A DNA stretch of 64,000 nt, taken from the NCBI RefSeq assembly GCF_003018255.1, contig NZ_CP027440.1; one strand, written 5' to 3'. A program made the position numbers and the translations under genes. Below, piece by piece: positions 1-7,280 of this stretch (position 1 is the stretch's first letter; every line of letters starts with the position of its first letter). Below the pieces are notes generated by a model that had not been told where the DNA came from, did not search any database, and saw only the letters and a program-made list of their open reading frames with translations. Source of the stretch: Escherichia coli (GTDB lineage: Bacteria > Pseudomonadota > Gammaproteobacteria > Enterobacterales > Enterobacteriaceae).

Positions 1-773
1 TCGCCCAGCGGCAGCAATAATTTTTCACGGGTGTTACGCGCAGGATTGAGATCAAACCGTCCGGTGTAGACCAGATCCGCCATCTGCAGCAGTTTATCTG
101 ACTGCCAGTTCGCCAGCGAATTGCGGTATTCCCACTGGCTAATGAAAGCGGGCAGTGATTCTGGTTTCACACGGAAGAAGTTAACATCGACATTGTTAAC
201 GTTAAGCGCCATTACCGGCAGCCCTTCAACGACCTTACCAGGAAGCAACGAACCACGACTGGCAAAACCGACGCTGGGTTGGATATCGCGGGTAGTTATA
301 GTTTTTTCGTCATCTTTACTAAAGGTTGCGTTATTGAGCGCTTTGACCTCCTTGCCAATAGTGACGATCAAATCACGTTTCGGTTCGAGGTGGCGTAAAC
401 GCAGCTCTTTAAGATTATCTGACAGCTCCCAGGCACCATCCACTTTGCCGCTTTTTTTATCGACGACATGAATAACGCGTGAGAAATCCTGATCCGGGTC
501 GAGAGGGATGGAGAACGTCAGCACCAGCGTGGCTGCGCCATCGAGTTGAACTTCAGAGAGATCCAGCAATGTCAGCGCCTTACCGGCACTCTGTTGGGCC
601 AGTTTTTGTCGCTCCGGCGCGGAAAGTTTTGCTGAACTCACGTTTTCTGAAGAGGCCGCTTTAGTAACTTCAGAAGGCGCATCTTTTTTCACCGCTGTTG
701 GCGCGTTATCGTTGTTGTCGCACCCTGCCAGCGCCAGCATTAGCATGCAGGCGGCTACGCGTAACTTTTTCAT
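1..773 (-). CDS. yfhM: alpha-2-macroglobulin family lipoprotein YfhM, N-terminal part (gene continues past window start)
   Basis: Minus-strand ATG at 771-773 gives MKKLRVAACMLMLALAGCDNNDN... (signal peptide plus lipobox LAGC); reading frame open to position 1. Recognised as the YfhM N-terminus. Confidence 0.85.
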   Translation of the reverse strand, partial: MKKLRVAACMLMLALAGCDNNDNAPTAVKKDAPSEVTKAASSENVSSAKLSAPERQKLAQQSAGKALTLLDLSEVQLDGAATLVLTFSIPLDPDQDFSRVIHVVDKKSGKVDGAWELSDNLKELRLRHLEPKRDLIVTIGKEVKALNNATFSKDDEKTITTRDIQPSVGFASRGSLLPGKVVEGLPVMALNVNNVDVNFFRVKPESLPAFISQWEYRNSLANWQSDKLLQMADLVYTGRFDLNPARNTREKLLLPLG

Positions 774-979
774 TTTTCATCCCTGCCACAATGGCCCGTT
801 AGCAACGTCGAATAATTATTATGCGTGAGAATTTACGTTATGTAATTCAGTATCACGCCCATACAATCCGAATTTTAGTGAGAATTGTGGCTCAGACAGC
901 CAAATCAGCCTCTTTTGCTTGTCGCTTTTCACTAAACATCCGACAATTTAGCCTAACCCCGGCAAAAATGGAGATGCCT

Positions 980-1825
980 ATGTCCACGACATGGTTTGTA
1001 GGAGCCGACTGGCTCGCCGAACATATTGATGACCCGGAAATTCAGATTATCGATGCCCGCATGGCGTCGCCTGGACAGGAAGATCGTAACGTTGCTCAGG
1101 AGTATCTGAATGGACATATTCCCGGCGCAGTGTTTTTTGATATCGAAGCGCTTTCTGATCACACTTCTCCGCTTCCGCACATGCTGCCGCGCCCGGAAAC
1201 GTTCGCCGTGGCGATGTGTGAATTAGGCGTTAACCAGGATAAGCACCTGATTGTCTATGACGAAGGTAATCTTTTCTCAGCCCCACGAGCATGGTGGATG
1301 CTGCGCACCTTTGGTGTAGAGAAAGTGTCGATTCTGGGTGGTGGACTTGCAGGCTGGCAGCGTGATGATCTGCTATTAGAAGAAGGCGCAGTAGAGCTGC
1401 CGGAAGGAGAGTTTAACGCCGCGTTTAATCCTGAAGCCGTGGTGAAAGTAACCGATGTGTTATTGGCAAGCCATGAAAATACGGCGCAAATTATCGATGC
1501 CCGCCCGGCTGCACGTTTTAACGCAGAAGTTGATGAACCTCGCCCAGGTTTACGTCGCGGACATATTCCCGGTGCACTAAATGTTCCGTGGACGGAACTG
1601 GTGCGCGAAGGTGAACTAAAAACGACCGATGAACTGGATGCGATATTTTTTGGTCGCGGCGTAAGTTATGACAAACCTATTATCGTCAGCTGCGGCTCTG
1701 GTGTAACGGCAGCCGTGGTTTTGTTGGCACTCGCGACACTTGATGTGCCAAACGTGAAACTGTACGACGGCGCATGGAGTGAATGGGGCGCACGAGCAGA
1801 TTTACCAGTTGAGCCAGAGAAATAA
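980..1825 (+). CDS. sseA: 3-mercaptopyruvate sulfurtransferase (tandem rhodanese domains)
   Basis: ORF track 821..1825; true start taken at internal ATG 980 (MSTTWFVGADWLAEH...), giving 281 aa. The track start at 821 is an in-frame upstream extension. Confidence 0.93.
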   Translation: MSTTWFVGADWLAEHIDDPEIQIIDARMASPGQEDRNVAQEYLNGHIPGAVFFDIEALSDHTSPLPHMLPRPETFAVAMCELGVNQDKHLIVYDEGNLFSAPRAWWMLRTFGVEKVSILGGGLAGWQRDDLLLEEGAVELPEGEFNAAFNPEAVVKVTDVLLASHENTAQIIDARPAARFNAEVDEPRPGLRRGHIPGALNVPWTELVREGELKTTDELDAIFFGRGVSYDKPIIVSCGSGVTAAVVLLALATLDVPNVKLYDGAWSEWGARADLPVEPEK

Positions 1826-1841
1826 GCTTTTAACAGGCAAT

Positions 1842-1870
1842 AAAAAACCGCCGAATCTGGCGGTTTTTTA
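1842..1870. terminator. bidirectional rho-independent terminator after sseA
   Basis: A-tract, GC stem aaccgcc/ggcggtt with loop gaatct, then T-tract (aaaaaaccgccgaatctggcggtttttta). Symmetric, so it can terminate either strand. Confidence 0.75.
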
Positions 1871-2034
1871 TTGCTGGTCTGGTTCGCGGCCTTTCCAGCA
1901 GATTGGCTTGTGTTGCATGAGCAACGCAGGTGCTTCACAGCAAAGCAATACTCGCCAGTAACTCTCTTTTTGTCAAGCGAAAGAGAGTAATCATTGTTTA
2001 TTTAGCGTATTATCGACACCGGCCCTTTCCGCCG
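1871..2034. repeat. tandem repeat unit 1 (degenerate copy of the ryfA upstream module)
   Basis: Blocks ttgctggtctggttcgcggcctttccagcagattg (1871-1905) and caatactcgccagtaactctctttttgtcaag (1946-1977) plus downstream ...gtattatc...cctttccgccgt recur almost identically in unit 2, about 322 bp away. Confidence 0.8.
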
Positions 2035-2154
2035 TGTTCGGTAATAAAATAACCTAGCTTATTAGTCCGAATTCAGACAAATATAAACAAATCCTGCTCA
2101 AAATTAAAAATACTAACCGGTAAAAGATATTACTTAAACATGTAAATTCACTTT

Positions 2155-2198
2155 CCTTTAAAAAACAAAAAACCGCCAAAATCAGGCGGTTATTTGTT
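2155..2198. terminator. bidirectional rho-independent terminator inside the sseA-sseB intergenic region
   Basis: aaaaaacaaaaaa-accgcc-aaaatca-ggcggt-tatttgttg. The minus-strand T-tract (TTTTTTGTTTTTT) is stronger than the plus-strand one. Confidence 0.65.
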
Positions 2199-2265
2199 GC
2201 TGGTTTGGTTCGCGGCCTTTCCAGCAGATTGTATTACCGTAGTAATGCAAGCGCGTCTCAGCGGA
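2160..2265 (-). ncRNA. candidate divergent antisense sRNA (antitoxin-like) to the ryfA small-ORF mRNA
   Basis: Inferred. Minus-strand -35-like TTGACA (complement of 2293-2298) and strong minus-strand terminator at 2155-2198. Sequence 2247-2263 (gcaagcgcgtctcagcg) is identical to 2407-2423, so a minus-strand RNA across 2247-2263 would pair perfectly over 17 nt with the plus-strand ryfA transcript. Ends are approximate. Confidence 0.35.
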
Positions 2266-2357
2266 CACAATACTCGCCAGTAACTCTCTTTTTGTCAAGT
2301 AAAAGAGAGTTATTATTGTTCTGTTAGTGTATTATCCACTGCGGACCTTTCCGCCGT
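2196..2357. repeat. tandem repeat unit 2 (upstream module of ryfA)
   Basis: Near-identical to unit 1 in the two conserved blocks (2196-2230 and 2268-2299). The segment between the blocks differs between units and carries the 17-nt match to the ryfA body. Confidence 0.8.
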
Positions 2358-2646
2358 CTCGCAAGCGGGCGCTGGCTTAAGGAAAGGATGTTCCGCGACC
2401 GTTAGAGCAAGCGCGTCTCAGCGCTTGCTATCGCGGCAATATCGCCAGTGGTGCTGTCGTGATGCGGTCTTCGCATGGACCGCACAATGAAGATACGGTG
2501 CTTTTGTATCGTACTTATTGTTTCTGGTGCGCTGTTAAGCGAGGTAAATAATAACCGGAGTCTCTCCGGCAACAATTTACTGGCGGTTAACAACCTTCAG
2601 AGCAGCAAGTAAGCCCGAATGCCGCCCTTTGGGGCGGCATATTTTA
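2343..2646 (+). ncRNA. ryfA: RyfA-like RNA (likely mRNA for a small hydrophobic protein)
   Basis: Position between sseA and sseB; -10-like TATTAT at 2330-2335; strong terminator at 2619-2647; predicted length about 304 nt fits the RyfA size I recall. Boundaries inferred, not measured. Confidence 0.45.
2487..2612 (+). CDS. small hydrophobic protein, 41 aa (type I toxin-like, TimP-like candidate)
   Basis: Hand-translated ATG..TAA ORF: MKIRCFCIVLIVSGALLSEVNNNRSLSGNNLLAVNNLQSSK. Hydrophobic N-terminal stretch about 15 aa, polar N/S-rich tail. Sits inside the putative ryfA transcript just before its terminator. Weak Shine-Dalgarno; below the 60-aa cutoff of the ORF track. Confidence 0.4.
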   Translation: MKIRCFCIVLIVSGALLSEVNNNRSLSGNNLLAVNNLQSSK

Positions 2647-2647
2647 G
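2619..2647 (+). terminator. rho-independent terminator of the ryfA transcript (overlaps sseB stop codon)
   Basis: Stem atgccgccc/gggcggcat (9 bp), loop tttg, followed by attttag on the plus strand. Confidence 0.7.
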
Positions 2648-3420
2648 ATTATCCGGTTCTGTTTAAAGTCACGCAAAAAACCACCCCAGCGACGTTCATA
2701 GAATGGCGCAATATGTTCGGTAATAAAGTGGCTAATTCCTTTTTCCCCTTTTTTCACCTGACAAATATCGATGGGTTCATCGCCAGGTAATGTATCGGTC
2801 GCTACACTTCCCGCCGCCTGAATAATTTCTTCGATATCACCATCGGCTTCAATGCCAATAAGTAAATTAGGCTGTGCCTCTTCGTTCTCTTTAATTGAAC
2901 AAATAAAAGCACGCTTCACCGGCTTAATAGTTTTAAATAAGGTGGTGAGTGAATCAATCATTTGTGCTGGTGGCTCTGCGACTTCCGATAATATCAGCGA
3001 TTCACCGCCTTCCAGTACTTCCTGGCTGCTCAGCGGATTTCCTTCTTCACCAATCAGCAAACTGATTTCACGCGGCATAAATTCTTTACCGGTTGGCAGT
3101 TTGGCATTAAGGAAGAGCGTTTCGCCAAGGGTCATCTCAAACAATGTGCGAACGGGCATTACGACAAATGCCTGTTCGTCTTCAACCGCCTGTTGAAGTG
3201 CTTCTAACGAGGTAAAAAAAGGAATGACGCTGGTGCCGTCTTCTTTTTCCCAGTGCTGTAAATCAAGCGCGCTATCTTCAACCACAGCCTCGCCCTGCGC
3301 CGCCGTACCCGGCACCCAGACGGTGGATTCCAGTAGAGTACGGAAAAAGGCCGGGCGGTGCGCCGGTTCGGTTGCTGCTTTTTCCAGCAGGTCTTCAAGT
3401 TCGTTTTTTGTTTCGGACAT
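2644..3420 (-). CDS. sseB: rhodanese-enhancing protein SseB
   Basis: ORF track 2644..3429 begins with a GTG; start moved to ATG at 3418-3420 (MSETKNELEDLL...), giving 258 aa. Confidence 0.9.
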   Translation of the reverse strand: MSETKNELEDLLEKAATEPAHRPAFFRTLLESTVWVPGTAAQGEAVVEDSALDLQHWEKEDGTSVIPFFTSLEALQQAVEDEQAFVVMPVRTLFEMTLGETLFLNAKLPTGKEFMPREISLLIGEEGNPLSSQEVLEGGESLILSEVAEPPAQMIDSLTTLFKTIKPVKRAFICSIKENEEAQPNLLIGIEADGDIEEIIQAAGSVATDTLPGDEPIDICQVKKGEKGISHFITEHIAPFYERRWGGFLRDFKQNRII

Positions 3421-3456
3421 AAGAACCACAATTCATTCAACGTTCGGGGCACAAGT

Positions 3457-3485
3457 GCCTGATGCGCTACGCTTATCAGGCCTAC
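3457..3485. repeat. REP (repetitive extragenic palindrome) element
   Basis: gcctgatgcgctacgcttatcaggcctac, a canonical REP-type imperfect palindrome, in the sseB-pepB intergenic region. Confidence 0.7.
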
Positions 3486-3538
3486 AAGGGAATCTCAATC
3501 TATTGGATTTTCGCAATTTTGTAGGCCAAATAAGACGT

Positions 3539-4822
3539 TTACGCCGTTAACAGATTAGCAATCGTGCGCACACCTAGCCCGGTCGCGCCCGCAGACCACT
3601 GTTCAACCGGCGCTTTACGGTAAGTCGCCGAGCAGTCGATATGCAGCCAGCCTTGCTGATAGTTCTCAACAAAGTGCGACAGGAAGCCCGCCGCCGTGCT
3701 TGCACCTGCCGGATACGCCGCGCTTCCGGTATTGTTCAGTTCGGCAAAGTTAGACGGCAGCTGGCTGCGGTGGAACTCCGCCAGCGGCAGACGCCAGAAT
3801 GGTTCATTCTCCTGCGCGGCACTCGCCAGCAAGCGAGCGGCAAGCGCATCGTCAAAACTGAACAGCGCGTGATAATCATTACCCAGCGCGGTTTTCGCCG
3901 CCCCGGTGAGGGTCGCCGCATCAATGATCAGTTCCGGTTTCTGCGCACTGGCATCAATCAGGCCATCGGCCAGCACCAGACGCCCTTCCGCATCGGTGTT
4001 CATCACTTCAACTTTTTTACCGTTGCGATAGGTAATGATATCGCCCAGCTTGAACGCATTGCCGCTGATCAGGTTATCCGCACAGCAGAGGAACAGCTTC
4101 ACGCGCTTGTTCAGTCCGCGCGTAATGGCAAACGCCAGCGCTCCGGTAACCGTTGCCGCGCCGCCCATGTCCGACTTCATCGAGTCCATAAATGCGGTCT
4201 GTTTGATACTGTAGCCGCCGGAATCAAAGGTGATGCCTTTACCAACCAGGCACGCGTACACTGGCGCTTCTTTATCGCCTGTTGGGTTGTAATCCAGCGC
4301 CAGCAATACCGGGGAACGTTCTGAACCGCGCCCGACCGTGTGCAGCCCCATATAACCTTGATCACGCAGATCTTCGCCTTTGGTGATCCGGTAAGTCACA
4401 CGATCGCCCGCGACGTTGCTGATCAGATCAACAGCACGCTGTGCCAGTTGCGATGGCCCCAGTTCTTCCGCCGGTGCGTTGATGGTGTCACGCACCCAGT
4501 CGATGATCATCAGGCGGTTATCCAGTTCCTGCCGTTGGGCATCGTCCAGATCCGGCCACTCCACTTTACGTGTGCCTTTCGGGGCTTTGTAACCTTGCCA
4601 GAATGCCCAGCAGCGATCCGCATCCCAGTCTTCACCGCTTAACTGAACATGCTTGATGCCCAGACCGTCAATCTTGCGCGCCGCACGCTGGATCAGCCCC
4701 AGATCGTCTGTCCCGTTCAAATGCAGGGTAATGCCATCATTATTAATGCTGTAAGTCGCTTTTTCTCCCCAGCGCGCGTCGGCAGGTTGGGTAGAAAGGG
4801 TAATTTTCATCGCTTCTGTCAT
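3539..4822 (-). CDS. pepB: aminopeptidase B (M17 family)
   Basis: ORF track, 427 aa, [21 protein letters not shown]...; contains the M17 NTDAEGRL motif. Confidence 0.95.
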
Positions 4823-4842
4823 TTTAGTTATCCTTATTCGTT

Positions 4843-4876
4843 TAACAGCAAAACGGGCTACCCCCAGGCAGCCCGT
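4843..4876 (-). terminator. rho-independent terminator downstream of iscX (end of isc operon)
   Basis: Minus-strand stem acgggct/agcccgt with 10-nt loop, followed by TTTTGCTGTT on the minus strand. Confidence 0.6.
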
Positions 4877-4880
4877 TCAT

Positions 4881-5081
4881 TCACTCGGCTTCGTCCAGCC
4901 AGACCAACAAAATCGCTTCGAGGATTTTCTCGTTCGATGCCTGCGGGTCGTCGTCGAAATCTTCCAGATCGCAAATCCACTGATGCATATCGGTGAATCG
5001 AACCGTTTTCGGATCAAGATCGGGATACGCATCGTACAGTGCTTCGCCAATTTCGCGGCTATCGGTCCACTTAAGTCCCAT
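4881..5081 (-). CDS. iscX: Fe-S cluster assembly protein IscX
   Basis: ORF track, 66 aa, [24 protein letters not shown]... Confidence 0.95.
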
Positions 5082-5092
5082 ACTAACCTCTG

Positions 5093-5428
5093 TTAATGCT
5101 CACGCGCATGGTTGATAGTGTAACGCGGGATTTCGACCACTAAATCTTCGTCGGTAACGCGCGCCTGGCAGCTTAAACGGCTTTCCGGCTCCAGTCCCCA
5201 GGCTTTGTCCAGCATGTCGTCTTCCTGCTCTGAGCTTTCCGGCAGCGAGTCAAAACCTTCGCGAACGATGCAGTGGCAGGTGGTGCAAGCACAGGATTTT
5301 TCACAGGCGTGTTCAATCTCGATACCGTTACGCAGCGCAACGTCGAGAATGGTTTCACCACTATTCGCTTCCAGAACAGCGCCATCAGGGCAGAGATCCT
5401 GATGAGGCAAAATAACAATCTTTGGCAT
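5093..5428 (-). CDS. fdx: [2Fe-2S] ferredoxin of the isc operon
   Basis: ORF track, 111 aa, [18 protein letters not shown]...; cysteine motif [12 protein letters not shown]. Confidence 0.95.
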
Positions 5429-5429
5429 A

Positions 5430-7280
5430 TTAAACCTCGTCCACGGAATGGCCTTTCAGCGCACGACGAACCGACTGGTCCATGCGGCGAGCGGCGAAAT
5501 CCTGGGTTTGTTTGTCTACGTTTTTAATCGCTTGTTCGATGGCGTCAACATCATCGCCCTGCGCCACTTCACTCAGGTGAGCGGCAGCATCGTCAATGAC
5601 CTGACGCTCTGCGGTGCTTAACAGCGCGGCATCAGCAGCCAGCGCGCCGTGCAAACTTTCCAGCACACGCGCCGCTTCTACTTTTTGTTCTGCCAGCATA
5701 CGGGCTTTTACGTCCTGCTCGGCATAGCTCATTGAGTCTTTGATCATCGAGGCGATTTCGCTGTCGGTCAGACCGTAGGACGGTTTGACCTGAATAGATG
5801 CCTCAACGCCGGTGGATTTCTCCATCGCCGTCACGCTCAAAAGACCGTCGGCATCGACCTGGAACGTCACGCGAATATGCGCGCCGCCAGCCGGTAACGC
5901 CGGAATACCACGCAGCGCAAAACGCGCCAGCGAGCGGCAGTCCTGCACCAGTTCGCGCTCACCCTGCATTACATGGATAGACATCGCCGTCTGACCATCT
6001 TTAAAGGTGGTGAAATCCTGAGCGCGCGCCACCGGAATAGTGGTATTACGCGGAATCACTTTCTCCACCAGGCCGCCCATCGTTTCGAGGCCCAGCGACA
6101 GCGGGATCACATCCAGCAACAGCATTTCGCTGTCCGGCTTGTTACCCACCAGAATATCCGCCTGAATCGCCGCGCCAATAGCGACGACTTTATCCGGGTC
6201 GATAGAAGTCAGCGGTGGACGACCGAAAAATTCGCCTACTCGTTCACGCACTAGCGGCACGCGAGTAGAACCGCCAACCATCACCACTTCCAGCACTTCA
6301 TCAGCTTCTACGCCAGCGTCTTTCAGCGCGCGACGACAAGCCAGCAAGGTTCGTTTTACCAGTGGCGCGATCAGTTCGTTGAATTGTTCACGGCTGATTT
6401 CGCCCTGCCAGCCCGCAACATTCACAGTCACGGAGTCCGCATCGCTCAGCGCGATTTTGGCTGCAATGGCGGCATCCAGCAGTTCACGCTGAACGCGGTT
6501 ATCGCTACGATCAGGAATGCCCGCCTGCTCGCGAATGTAATCCGCCAGCAGATGGTCGAAATCATCGCCGCCGAGCGCGGAATCACCGCCGGTCGCCAGC
6601 ACTTCAAACACGCCGCGACTTAAGCGCAGAATGGAAATATCAAACGTCCCGCCGCCGAGGTCATAAACGGCGATCACGCCTTCCTGACCGGAATCCAGCC
6701 CGTAGGCGATAGCCGCAGCGGTCGGTTCGTTAAGTAAGCGCAGAACATGCAACCCCGCCAGACGCGCCGCGTCTTTGGTGCCCTGACGCTGGGCATCGTC
6801 AAAGTACGCCGGAACGGTGATAACTACACCATCCAGCTCGCCTGCCAGGGCTTCAGTTGCCCGCGCCGCCAGTGCTTTGAGGATGTCCGCAGAAACGCGC
6901 ACCGGGTTCAGCAGCCCCGCCGCCGTTTCAATCATCGGCAGGCCGTTTTCGCTGGCCTGGAATTGATAAGGCAGATGTGGATAGCGTTGCTGGATATCAG
7001 CCAGCGAGCGCCCCATCAGGCGTTTAACAGAACTAATGGTGTTGGCGGTATCGAGCGCTGCGTTAGTACGCGCATCATAACCCACCGAATGCCCTTGCTG
7101 TTGATAGTGAACAACAGACGGCAGCAGGTGACGGCCTTCATGGTCGGCTAACGTTTCGGCCTGACCGCTGCGCACTGTCGCCACCAGCGAGTTGGTTGTG
7201 CCAAGGTCGATACCGGCCGCCAGACGACGCTGATGCGGCGCAGCACTCAAACCAGGTTCACTAATTTGTAATAAGGCCAT
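5430..7280 (-). CDS. hscA: Fe-S cluster assembly chaperone HscA (Hsp70 family)
   Basis: ORF track 5430..7334; start moved to ATG at 7278-7280 ([10 protein letters not shown]...), 616 aa; Hsp70 motif IDLGTTNS. Confidence 0.95.

Follow-up and report, generated by a model that had tools for sequence, protein, structure and literature searches.

The interval between sseA and sseB was analysed as part of a window of 64,000 nucleotides of Escherichia coli DNA, the whole stretch under study. It holds two related units, each with a minus-strand gene for a small RNA of the TimR (RyfB) type; unit 2 continues into the toxin gene timP (ryfA), and unit 1 into the beginning of a second timP (Table 1). A repeat search returned two families of direct repeats that are in register with an offset of 322-326 bp, namely 1842-1905 versus 2168-2231 (64 nt, 86% identity, spacing 326) and 1946-2035 versus 2268-2357 (90 nt, 87% identity, spacing 322), which bears out the tandem duplication proposed in the initial annotation of this DNA. 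Diverged cores lie between the repeats (1906-1945 and 2232-2267), and the homology of the two units stops abruptly past CCGCCGT (2035 and 2357).

Table 1. Features of the sseA-sseB interval, in window coordinates.
Feature	Position	Strand	Description
sseA	980..1825	+	3-mercaptopyruvate sulfurtransferase; left flank; mapped from the RefSeq annotation of the 99.9%-identical strain DETEC-S792; ORF end 1825
Terminator T1	1837..1874		Bidirectional; ends sseA (+) and timR-1 (-)
timR-1	1840..1941	-	~102-nt TimR/RyfB-type antitoxin sRNA gene, class X, seed 5'-GCUGUGAAGCACCUGC; paralog of the unit 2 gene
timR-1 promoter	1948..1976	-	-35 TTGACA (1976-1971), 17-nt spacer, -10 GAGTAT (1953-1948)
Rfam IS128 (RF00125) match	2001..2209	+	258.3 bits, gathering score 80; timP-1 promoter, stub, sseB tail, spacer and T2
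timP copy 1 remnant	2008..2035	+	-10 TATTAT (2008-2013), predicted start ~2019, first 17 transcript nt (CCGGCCCTTTCCGCCGT)
Deletion junction and sseB tail	2035..2048		14 nt (TGTTCGGTAATAAA) remaining from the tail of an earlier partial sseB copy; same sequence as sseB 2714-2727
AT-rich spacer	2049..2163		Together with the stub, most of 'IS128'
Terminator T2	2164..2194		Bidirectional; ends timR-2 (-) and any stub/IS128 transcript (+); repeat evidence
timR-2	2165..2264	-	~100-nt TimR antitoxin sRNA, class Y, seed 5'-CCGCUGAGACGCGCUUGC; cognate to the adjoining timP
timR-2 promoter	2270..2298	-	-35 TTGACA (2298-2293), -10 GAGTAT (2275-2270); cross-genus conservation as in unit 1
Palindrome TAACTCTCTTTT/AAAAGAGAGTTA	2281..2312		12-bp arms around the timR -35, between both transcription starts
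timP promoter -10	2330..2335	+	TATTAT; the ryfA model starts 6 nt downstream, at 2341
timP mRNA (RyfA RNA)	2341..2645	+	RF00126, 312.5 bits, model 1-296 of 296; gathering score 80
TimR-binding site, class Y	2407..2423	+	timP 5'UTR, +67 to +83, SL2 loop; predicted by complementarity
TimP ORF	2487..2612	+	41 aa, by translation; NCBIfam NF040796 toxic_TimP, 80.5 bits, cut-off 45
sseB	2644..3420	-	Right flank; RefSeq annotation mapped from genome L001, and ORF; the duplicated fragment derives from its 3' end

The elements that the initial annotation had listed for each unit, a bidirectional terminator at its head, a minus-strand TTGACA and a TATTAT, are all present, with terminator hairpins at 1837-1874 and 2171-2191, and each can be given an identity. 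The 35-nt block corresponds to the conserved stem-loop of TimR and the 32-nt block to the timR promoter, with its -10 and -35; TATTAT serves as the timP -10, and the variable core as the target-recognition seed of TimR. The duplicated regulatory-RNA module was thus rightly recognized, and the duplicated gene is the minus-strand timR (ryfB). The hairpin of 10 bp assigned to the 32-nt block is found as a palindrome of 10-12 bp around TTGACA (at 1959-1988 in unit 1), but it lies between the two divergent transcription starts and is therefore a DNA element that is part of neither RNA. Only Escherichia alleles of classes X and Y have it; alleles of classes Z and W, and the other genera, lack it. 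The cores had been said to differ completely; both retain a short hairpin, and their 16-nt seeds, GCAGGTGCTTCACAGC and GCAAGCGCGTCTCAGC, differ at 4 positions. All sequence 3' of CCGCCGT had likewise been said to differ, and homology does end there, but because the body of timP copy 1 is absent from unit 1 rather than diverged. Small ORFs within the repeat units amount to frame noise, with nothing coding-like common to both.

That a terminator hairpin begins both units, and that the region is intergenic, would suit a generic repeat (REP/BIME, MITE or tandem terminators) that holds no RNA gene. However, the whole 64 kb contain the 21-nt core of the 35-nt block in exactly two places, against 0.01 matches with up to 3 mismatches expected from shuffled sequence, and in E. 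coli genomes the unit is confined to the sseA-sseB locus, at 1-3 places per genome. The unit is also orthologous to the experimentally defined TimR, RyfB and ECS011 RNAs and covaries with timP, and an explanation as a generic repeat can be given almost no weight.

Unit 2, as judged from sequence, is a complete timPR module and the ortholog of Salmonella timP-timR. The initial annotation placed ryfA here, and the Rfam model search recovers it over the full model; ryfA is an mRNA coding for the small, hydrophobic TimP of 41 aa, and so more than a regulatory RNA. A terminator of the timP transcript is called at 2619-2640 by the terminator scan. RefSeq annotates timP at the position of the ORF in a near-identical genome, and at this locus in almost every one of 5,425 E. 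coli genomes. Two-copy ryfA arrangements, also mentioned in the annotation, do exist in Shigella dysenteriae (PMC5333039) and in some E. coli, but this window has one ryfA/timP, with one RF00126 match in positions 1-6000 and one match to the conserved timP core in all 64 kb. The timR-2 seed has 17 nt perfectly complementary to the timP mRNA, such that 2247-2263 is an exact direct repeat of 2407-2423, and the duplex is predicted at -37.0 kcal/mol; the predicted fold of timR-2 itself has -33.2 kcal/mol (z = -3.5). In both units the small RNA gene has a minus-strand TTGACA-17-GAGTAT promoter and a terminator, and is divergent from timP without overlapping it.

Leftward transcription from the TTGACA/GAGTAT promoter would give TimR-2 as an sRNA of ~100 nt that stops at T2, and rightward transcription from 2341 would give the mRNA for TimP, a membrane toxin. 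TimR-2 is predicted to pair through its first 17-18 nt with the SL2 loop of the timP 5'UTR. By the Salmonella precedent, such pairing would block the pseudoknot-dependent conformation needed for translation and keep TimP off. The timR and timP genes are presumably expressed in this strain, and TimR-2 probably represses timP.

Owing to the weakness of the -10 GAGTAT and of the timP -35, neither the timR nor the timP promoters were called by a consensus sigma-70 scan with strict thresholds. They are assigned instead from their conservation between genera and from the 5' end of the K-12 RNA ECS011, which is the ortholog of the unit-2 TimR; this end maps to window position 2264, 6 nt downstream of the timR-2 -10. 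ECS011 has been sequenced (2651730<-2651800) and gives northern bands of ~95 and 100 nt (PMC3175480 supplement). Block conservation between species had been set beforehand as a test, and the timR elements (terminator, invariant SL2 block, SL1, seed, -10 and TTGACA) do align across six genera, Escherichia, Citrobacter, Yersinia, Superficieibacter, Rahnella and Erwinia. Between genera TGTCAAG hardly varies, the timR -10 takes the forms GAnTAT, CAATAT or CAAAAT, and a TATTAT-like -10 stands at the timP-promoter position in most other-genus loci. RNAalifold on 17 TimR sequences predicts a single-stranded seed and three hairpins, with compensatory changes in 7 of 27 pairs, and both window copies fold according to this layout. 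The contig scan behind part of this comparison used a timP pattern, GCGGTCNNNGCANNGACCGCAC, that was too loose (at least 120 matches, mostly in unrelated GC-rich genomes); 15 Enterobacterales loci were used, 14 of them with ryfA, and Salmonella, Shigella and Klebsiella were not among the matches listed.

The terminator scan called T2, at 2171-2191, on both strands but did not list T1, it is suspected because the T-run of T1 falls inside its long stem. The T1 hairpin has 16-nt arms that are 100% complementary, a 6-nt loop, an A-run before and a T-run after, and is conserved across the six genera. The 5' end of timR-1 is provisionally placed by analogy with ECS011. The timR-1 gene differs at one position (1857) from the timR unit of strain Nissle 1917, whose timP has an X site, and its fold of seed, SL1, SL2 and terminator is predicted at -38.5 kcal/mol (z = -4.5). 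Three Rfam matches on unit 1 were rejected, all below the gathering score: AgrB (RF02891; 27.8 bits against a gathering score of 40, E = 0.15) and the rimP leader, for both of which identity is concentrated in the terminator hairpin, and RNAI.

TimR-1 is of class X and the resident timP of class Y; TimR-1 is therefore a timR homolog that is not the cognate antitoxin of this timP, and it is partnerless, with no matching timP within the 64-kb window. It could still be argued that TimR-1 cross-represses the resident timP as a redundant back-up antitoxin, given that the seeds differ at just 4 of 16 positions and that duplexfold gives -20.4 kcal/mol for TimR-1 on this timP. However, the longest contiguous pairing is 6 bp (9 with G-U), as against 17 bp for the cognate RNA. 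Overproduction of RyfB1 in S. dysenteriae lowered RyfA1 but not RyfA2, despite their similar sites (PMC5333039), and a 6-nt seed mutation abolished rescue in Salmonella (PMC7667032). A back-up role is thus quite improbable, and TimR-1 is treated below as non-cognate.

The comparison of alleles and genera suggests how specificity is set. Duplex energies were computed with duplexfold for TimR nt 1-24 against the SL2 region; this seed/SL2 comparison replaced duplexfold on full-length RNAs, which returned a meaningless -60 to -78 kcal/mol for every pair. Cognate TimR/timP duplexes run for 15-19 contiguous bp, at -34 to -37 kcal/mol, whereas non-cognate pairs among E. coli alleles range from -11 to -26 kcal/mol. 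In a 15 x 15 matrix the mean was -36.4 kcal/mol for cognate and -22.5 (sd 5.8) for non-cognate pairs, and the own target ranked first for 12 of the 15. Strain KS-NP019 has the identical C-to-T change in seed and in site. In 11 of 14 loci of other species, the longest direct repeat between the upstream region and ryfA falls at -75..-97 and +66..+73, with a species-specific sequence. The variable core is thus, by sequence, the specificity seed of the antitoxin, and, between alleles and in six genera, it changes together with the timP site.

In the lineage of the window, it is the adjoining timR (timR-2) that matches timP. The arrangement is reversed in K-12-type genomes (~1,569 of 5,426 complete E. 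coli genomes, ~29%; class frequencies are approximate, as counts by identity band), where the timP site is of class X, so that the distal TimR matches and the adjoining copy does not. The matching timR then lies ~480 bp from timP, and the mismatched adjoining timR is ECS011. Strains AST240 and E700025 have an independent architecture in which, again, the distal copy matches and the adjoining copy does not.

The two-copy E. coli genomes L002-L004 suggest the origin of unit 1. Their order is sseA, timR, timP, an 87-bp sseB fragment, an AT-rich spacer, timR, timP and sseB, and alignment with the window exposes a gap at the timP-1 body. The remnant of timP-1, which is 87% identical to the intact timP promoter and 5' end, runs on into a full timP in those genomes, and the 87-bp fragment, annotated by RefSeq as an sseB 3' pseudogene, ends at the sequence found here at 2035-2048. 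In comparison, ~400 bp are absent from the window, from timP +17 into the sseB fragment. K-12 has the same deletion junction, with substitutions only. The allele orders of the sampled two-copy genomes are Z-X and Y-X, versus an X stub followed by Y in the window; allele exchange by recombination is therefore invoked besides deletion. A simple head-to-tail duplication would not account for the ~120-bp spacer, which had no homolog in the loci of other genera, elsewhere in the window or among true plasmids. Of 5,426 complete E. coli genomes, 2,157 contain the segment 2036-2167, chromosomal every time. The sole match in the plasmid search was a 4.9-Mb record.

Taken together, the region is very probably a timPR (ryfA/ryfB) type I toxin-antitoxin locus with a decayed second copy, a reading that draws on the anatomy of the locus, its homology to timPR loci, the complementarity and covariation of seed and site, and the missing timP-1 body. 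Unit 1 (1837-2035) would be the leftover of a second timR-timP module that is still whole in some E. coli. After the loss of ~400 bp, it appears to have kept an intact timR-1 gene and a timP promoter, which would now read into the spacer, stub and spacer together being the 'IS128' of Rfam. TimR-1 and the stub transcript probably lack function. The timPR system and its mechanism are already known; only the arrangement of two timR genes with one timP is modestly new, and it is little described.

The same reading accounts for several names given to this DNA before timPR was recognized: IS128, IS129/ECS011 and C0614 (Shinhara 2011, PMC3175480, and Chen 2002 and Tjaden 2002, as cited) denote fragments of it. 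ECS011/IS129 is the unit-2 TimR, and is explained here as a TimR paralog; C0614 abuts the 5' end of the unit-1 TimR; and IS128 is the timP stub fused to the spacer. Three unexplained K-12 'sRNA' annotations thus become parts of one decayed timPR duplication. A plus-strand IS128 RNA (~2019-2195) could instead be the functional product of unit 1, either as an sRNA or as an antisense or interference transcript that damps TimR-2 when transcription from both sides converges through T2. The 258-bit RF00125 match, a promoter of the timP type that is strong in relatives, the overlap with the timR-2 3' end at 2165-2209 and the differential expression of 'IS128' in one RNA-seq study (PMC4676190) would agree with such a product. 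In K-12, however, strand-specific northern probes detected no IS128 RNA, and it was judged an artefact (PMC3175480); the earlier signal of 90-95 nt came from a double-stranded probe and fits TimR. The IS128 body is AT-rich with weak predicted structure except for the terminator, AST240-type loci have a different left junction of the spacer, and comparison with two-copy genomes makes IS128 a by-product of deletion. Overexpression of IS128 gave no phenotype; that of RyfA slows the growth of K-12 (PMC4606813). A functional IS128 RNA is very improbable indeed.

Less remote is the possibility that unit 1 is a second antitoxin or regulator kept by selection, which would act in trans on other mRNAs, or neutralise incoming timP alleles of class X as a form of 'immunity' and so license the exchange of alleles. 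The timR-1 gene looks intact in promoter, seed, three hairpins and terminator, and loci with two timR genes and one timP are common, as the count of genomes with the spacer suggests. In the ~1,569 genomes with an X-site timP, the distal TimR-X is the only matching antitoxin, and AST240 and E700025 follow the same rule independently. In APEC, a ΔryfA strain is attenuated but a ΔryfA ΔtimR strain is near wild type (PMC13188913), suggesting that a partnerless TimR has effects of its own. However, when the 64-kb window was searched for TimR-1 seed targets, allowing up to 3 mismatches, the one site besides its own gene had 3 mismatches and is consistent with chance, and intactness may merely mean recent origin. 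Genomes of the window type are few (74-84) and nearly identical, so that conservation is uninformative on selection, and neither the C0614 segment nor IS128 had a phenotype when overexpressed in K-12 (PMC4606813). Selective retention of unit 1 is therefore considered somewhat unlikely, and a decayed second copy is preferred.

A still more speculative extension, which we regard as unlikely, is that partnerless TimR copies in general are not mere leftovers but are kept, so that the locus would store a small set of antitoxin specificities (X, Y, Z and W). If so, a spare antitoxin would permit the toxin site to be swapped by recombination while the toxin is never unrepressed, and K-12-type genomes, with a timP that matches the distal timR, would be the outcome. 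A spare TimR acting in trans might also explain why ΔryfA phenotypes vanish upon co-deletion of timR.

In many E. coli, a single timP has beside it two timR genes that differ in specificity, and the short variable core serves as a specificity code that co-evolves with the toxin mRNA. The distal match in K-12-type genomes runs counter to the common presumption that the antitoxin is the sRNA next to the toxin gene. The K-12 match being the distal copy, a 'ΔtimR' made by deletion of the adjoining gene might therefore remove the wrong RNA, and the phenotypes of ryfA/timR deletions may depend on which partnerless TimR is left. The locus offers a natural test bed for the insulation and exchange of type I antitoxin specificity.

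The closest known system is timP-timR of Salmonella Typhimurium (Andresen 2020, PMC7667032; PMC11228461; PMC13000454), at the same locus adjoining sseB. It has in common with the window the RF00126 RNA family, the NF040796 toxin family, a divergent, non-overlapping sRNA gene and a complementarity of 17-18 nt between the sRNA 5' end and the SL2 loop, at the same site position. In Salmonella, the 18-nt TimR/timP pairing was proven by compensatory mutations and in vitro translation (PMC7667032), and the protection of SL2 (G76 is protected) and the pseudoknot mechanism were described (PMC11228461). Toxicity of TimP on overexpression and translational repression by TimR have been demonstrated only in Salmonella (PMC7667032); two studies did not detect a peptide (PMC5333039; cited in PMC13188913). 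The Salmonella locus is described with one timR and one timP, and with STM2534 between sseA and timP, whereas the window has a second timR without a toxin partner and a timP promoter stub, and its function is predicted from sequence.

The same module is tandemly duplicated in S. dysenteriae as Sibling RyfA1/RyfB1 and RyfA2/RyfB2 (Fris 2017, PMC5333039), in a study that took RyfA as a non-coding regulator. RyfB1 and RyfB2, of ~100 nt, are divergent to RyfA1 and RyfA2, and RyfB1 lowers RyfA1 only (PMC5333039). This copy-specific repression is set by a short 'variable region', of which the versions TGTTT, CGCGT and CACCC correspond to X, Y and Z here. The window shares with the S. dysenteriae locus two divergent RyfB/TimR genes with different seeds. 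Two full-length tandem ryfA/timP genes are kept by S. dysenteriae and by L002-L004, but not by the window, where copy 1 has lost its body and only the RyfB-type gene survives.

More distant parallels are dinQ-agrA/agrB, cited as a similar arrangement in PMC7667032, and multi-copy type I systems with copy-specific antitoxins, among which zor-orz is named in PMC7667032 and PMC5333039. The dinQ-agrA/agrB sequence family is unrelated to timPR, and dinQ is SOS-regulated. At this E. coli locus, as reported by Weel-Sneve in 2013, a single gene for a small membrane toxin lies divergent to a tandem pair of homologous sRNA genes, of which reportedly AgrB alone is complementary enough to repress the toxin. 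The zorO-orzO/zorP-orzP and Sib/Ibs systems are tandem or dispersed paralogous toxin/sRNA pairs that are insulated by a few seed nucleotides, and each sRNA reportedly retains its own toxin. The window, in contrast, leaves one sRNA toxinless, and in K-12-type genomes the sRNA that matches the toxin is not the adjoining one.

The ryfA gene, which the initial annotation had suggested for the interval between sseA and sseB, was found at 2341-2645 (Rfam RF00126, 312.5 bits), and a second family, IS128 (RF00125), matches 2001-2209 with 258.3 bits. RefSeq annotates a timP CDS inside ryfA, and a 41-aa ORF at 2487-2612 matches the NCBIfam toxic_TimP model with 80.5 bits (cut-off 45). The ryfA RNA serves as messenger for TimP, a type I toxin. 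In Salmonella, the divergent sRNA TimR blocks translation by pairing its 5' end with an 18-nt stretch of the timP 5'UTR, as compensatory mutations together with in vitro translation proved (PMC7667032). The TimR site is located within the SL2 loop of timP, and binding stops a pseudoknot-dependent active fold (PMC11228461; PMC13000454). The closest genome is E. coli DETEC-S792 (99.9% identity); K-12 is 95.6% identical over 1700-2750.

The partial duplication described earlier was recovered by a repeat search as two direct-repeat matches in register, 1842-1905 with 2168-2231 (64 nt, 86% identity, offset 326 bp) and 1946-2035 with 2268-2357 (90 nt, 87% identity, offset 322 bp). The cores between them (1906-1945 and 2232-2267) diverge and homology stops sharply after CCGCCGT; the hairpins, complementary-strand TTGACA and TATTAT elements were all found. 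In the whole 64-kb window the conserved 21-mer GGTTCGCGGCCTTTCCAGCAG is present at just two places, with 0.01 expected. Both repeat units carry a timR gene, ~100 nt long.

Features of the two timR units and the seed/site classes of E. coli
Feature	Unit 1	Unit 2	Strand	Sequence or detail
timR -35	1976-1971	2298-2293	minus	TTGACA
timR spacer, -35 to -10			minus	17 nt
timR -10	1953-1948	2275-2270	minus	GAGTAT
timR order			minus	variable core, short hairpin SL1, SL2 (the 35-nt block), terminator
timP -10	2008-2013	2330-2335	plus	TATTAT
timP transcript start	2019	2341	plus	
Class X				GCAGGTGCTTCACAGC in timR, GCAGGTGTTTCACAGC in timP
Class Y				GCAAGCGCGTCTCAGC
Class Z				CAGGCACCCCACAG
Class W				GCAAGTGTATCTCGTC

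The K-12 ortholog of unit 2, ECS011, is expressed, with northern bands of ~95 and 100 nt, and has been sequenced (2651730<-2651800, 5'-CCGCUGAGACGCGCUUGC...; PMC3175480); its 5' end corresponds to window position 2264, 6 nt downstream of the proposed timR-2 -10. For both predicted TimR RNAs the fold comprises seed, SL1, SL2 and terminator (z = -4.5 and -3.5 for units 1 and 2). The layout is maintained between species, being alignable in Escherichia, Citrobacter, Yersinia, Superficieibacter, Rahnella and Erwinia; across 17 sequences, RNAalifold finds SL2 invariant and compensatory changes in both SL1 and terminator. The TimR SL2 (CUGGAAAGGCCGC..ACC.GACCAG; 1878-1900 and 2204-2226, minus strand; columns 45-72 of TimR alignment A1) is near-invariant in the six genera while other parts of the RNA vary, suggesting protein binding or another sequence-specific role.

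The sequence GCAAGCGCGTCTCAGCG in the unit 2 core (2247-2263) recurs without a mismatch, in direct orientation, at 2407-2423 of timP (+67 to +83), and therefore TimR-2 is complementary to 17 nt of the SL2 loop with no mismatch. Gene anatomy, complementarity and covariation are established at the level of sequence and comparison, where the variable core is the specificity seed. E. coli has at least four seed/site classes, and the "variable regions" TGTTT, CGCGT and CACCC of Fris et al. (PMC5333039) are classes X, Y and Z. Within each cognate module the seed matches the site; cognate pairs form 15-19 contiguous bp at -34 to -37 kcal/mol, and non-cognate E. coli pairs reach -11 to -26 kcal/mol. 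In a 15 x 15 pairing matrix the means are -36.4 (cognate) versus -22.5 kcal/mol (non-cognate). Strain KS-NP019 carries an identical C-to-T change in seed and site, and 11 of 14 loci from other species have their longest upstream/ryfA repeat at the same two positions, with species-specific sequence. Complementarity across species was noted earlier by Andresen et al. (PMC7667032).

A palindrome with 10-12-bp arms (TAACTCTCTTTT/AAAAGAGAGTTA), also seen in the initial annotation, is centred on the timR -35 at 1959-1988 and 2281-2312. The palindrome sits where neither gene is transcribed, between the start sites of the diverging timR and timP transcripts; it is limited to X and Y alleles of Escherichia, and could be an operator.

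Comparison with two-copy loci identifies unit 1 as a copy that lost its timP body. Two-copy ryfA arrangements do exist, as the initial annotation stated: S. dysenteriae carries the same RNAs in tandem under the names RyfA1/RyfA2 and RyfB1/RyfB2 (PMC5333039), and E. coli DETEC-C31, TB06052 and WP5-S18-ESBL-08 have a full two-copy locus in the order sseA, timR, timP, 87-bp sseB 3' fragment (annotated as a pseudogene), AT-rich ~120-bp spacer, timR, timP, sseB. Alignment with these shows ~400 bp missing from the window: the gap opens at timP +17 and closes within the sseB fragment. The 14 nt that follow (2035-2048) repeat 2714-2727 of sseB exactly, and K-12 shares this junction. Therefore, IS128 is the timP-1 promoter and a 17-nt stub joined to the tail of sseB and to the spacer, with the timR-2 terminator as its end. 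This fits the lack of IS128 RNA in K-12 with strand-specific probes (PMC3175480), the lack of phenotype on overexpression (PMC4606813) and a predicted structure that is slight except for the terminator. The proposed duplicated regulatory-RNA module at ryfA is partly right; unit 1 is what remains of a second timPR copy.

For the AT-rich ~115-bp spacer at the junction of the units (2049-2163), no homolog could be detected beyond the E. coli locus itself, so the original duplication was not a clean head-to-tail event. Sampled two-copy genomes have allele orders Z-X and Y-X and none X-Y, so alleles must have been reshuffled by recombination. In DETEC-C31 (L002, ~1100-1140), a 17-nt tandem duplication (AATAAAAAACCGCCGAA) lies inside the sseA/timR-1 terminator.

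In the window, timR-1 is of class X, and timR-2 and timP are of class Y. The timR-1 unit differs by 1 nt from that of Nissle 1917, whose timP has an X site; TimR-1 therefore has no partner in the window. On the window timP, TimR-1 scores -20.4 versus -37.0 kcal/mol for TimR-2, and a search of the window for TimR-1 targets with at most three mismatches found, beyond its own gene, a single 3-mismatch site, consistent with chance. By analogy with experiments in relatives, in which seed mismatches abolish control of timP, TimR would block timP translation by SL2 pairing. Both timR genes are probably expressed in the window strain, with TimR-2 the likely working antitoxin and TimR-1 and the stub transcript presumable by-products.

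K-12 and B strains share the window-like architecture, but their timP site is of class X; the 12 differences between window and K-12 that cluster at 2396-2418 are this class switch. Their timP is matched by the distal unit-1 TimR-X (-36.2 kcal/mol), encoded ~480 bp upstream (K-12 DH10B, L005 382-960; E. coli B C2566, L008 1528-2100), and mismatched with the adjacent TimR-Y, which is ECS011 (-25.7 kcal/mol). Evidence for TimR-X expression in K-12 is thin, the sole sign being reads on 4 nt of the C0614 overlap. A further architecture occurs in AST240 (L130, 242-760) and E700025 (L132, 509-1030), where the distal timR is W, the adjacent X' and timP W, again a distal match. The distal class-W timR is without SL1 and has another terminator; the same AT-rich spacer follows it with a different left junction, and an IS200 tnpA lies upstream.

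In E. coli 06-00048 (L131, ~1146-1290), Citrobacter amalonaticus (L066) and Yersinia aleksiciae (L119), the timR seed joins timP directly, past the TimR site. This is a deletion between the direct-repeat copies (seed and site), found in three lineages, that takes out both promoters and timP +1 to ~+66; RefSeq still annotates timP in 06-00048. The IS elements ISEcB1 and IS200/IS605 have inserted repeatedly between sseA and timR (L008 111-1468; L131 1-1067; upstream of L130/L132; match H13), in one case, in L131, cutting into the timR terminator. Between sseB and pepB, window 3430-3540 holds the REP-like palindromic sequence gcctgatgcgctacgcttatcaggcctac, with a sub-threshold Rfam match to ES036 (3478-3520, minus strand; 24.3 versus 37.6 bits).

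Approximate counts over the 5,426 complete E. coli genomes put the AT-rich spacer in 2,157, the K-12-type Y-seed/X-site segment in 1,569 and the window-type arrangement in 74-84 (the latter two at >=99% identity). Matches to the timP body occur at 5,602 places in 5,425 genomes (~177 extra copies). An earlier survey found IS128 absent in phylogroups B2+D, E and B1 (PMC3318445).

Neither an account of IS128/ECS011/C0614 as the decayed second copy of timPR, nor partnerless timR genes of another class, nor the mismatch between timP and the adjacent timR in K-12-type genomes was found in the openly searchable literature. In a 2026 APEC study, delta-ryfA phenotypes vanish in delta-ryfA delta-timR (PMC13188913), which makes natural partnerless TimR copies worth testing. 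The system itself, its mechanism, its tandem sibling copies and its cross-species covariation are already published; the initial observation is confirmed and its interpretation partly right, the system being of a known kind and its arrangement little described.
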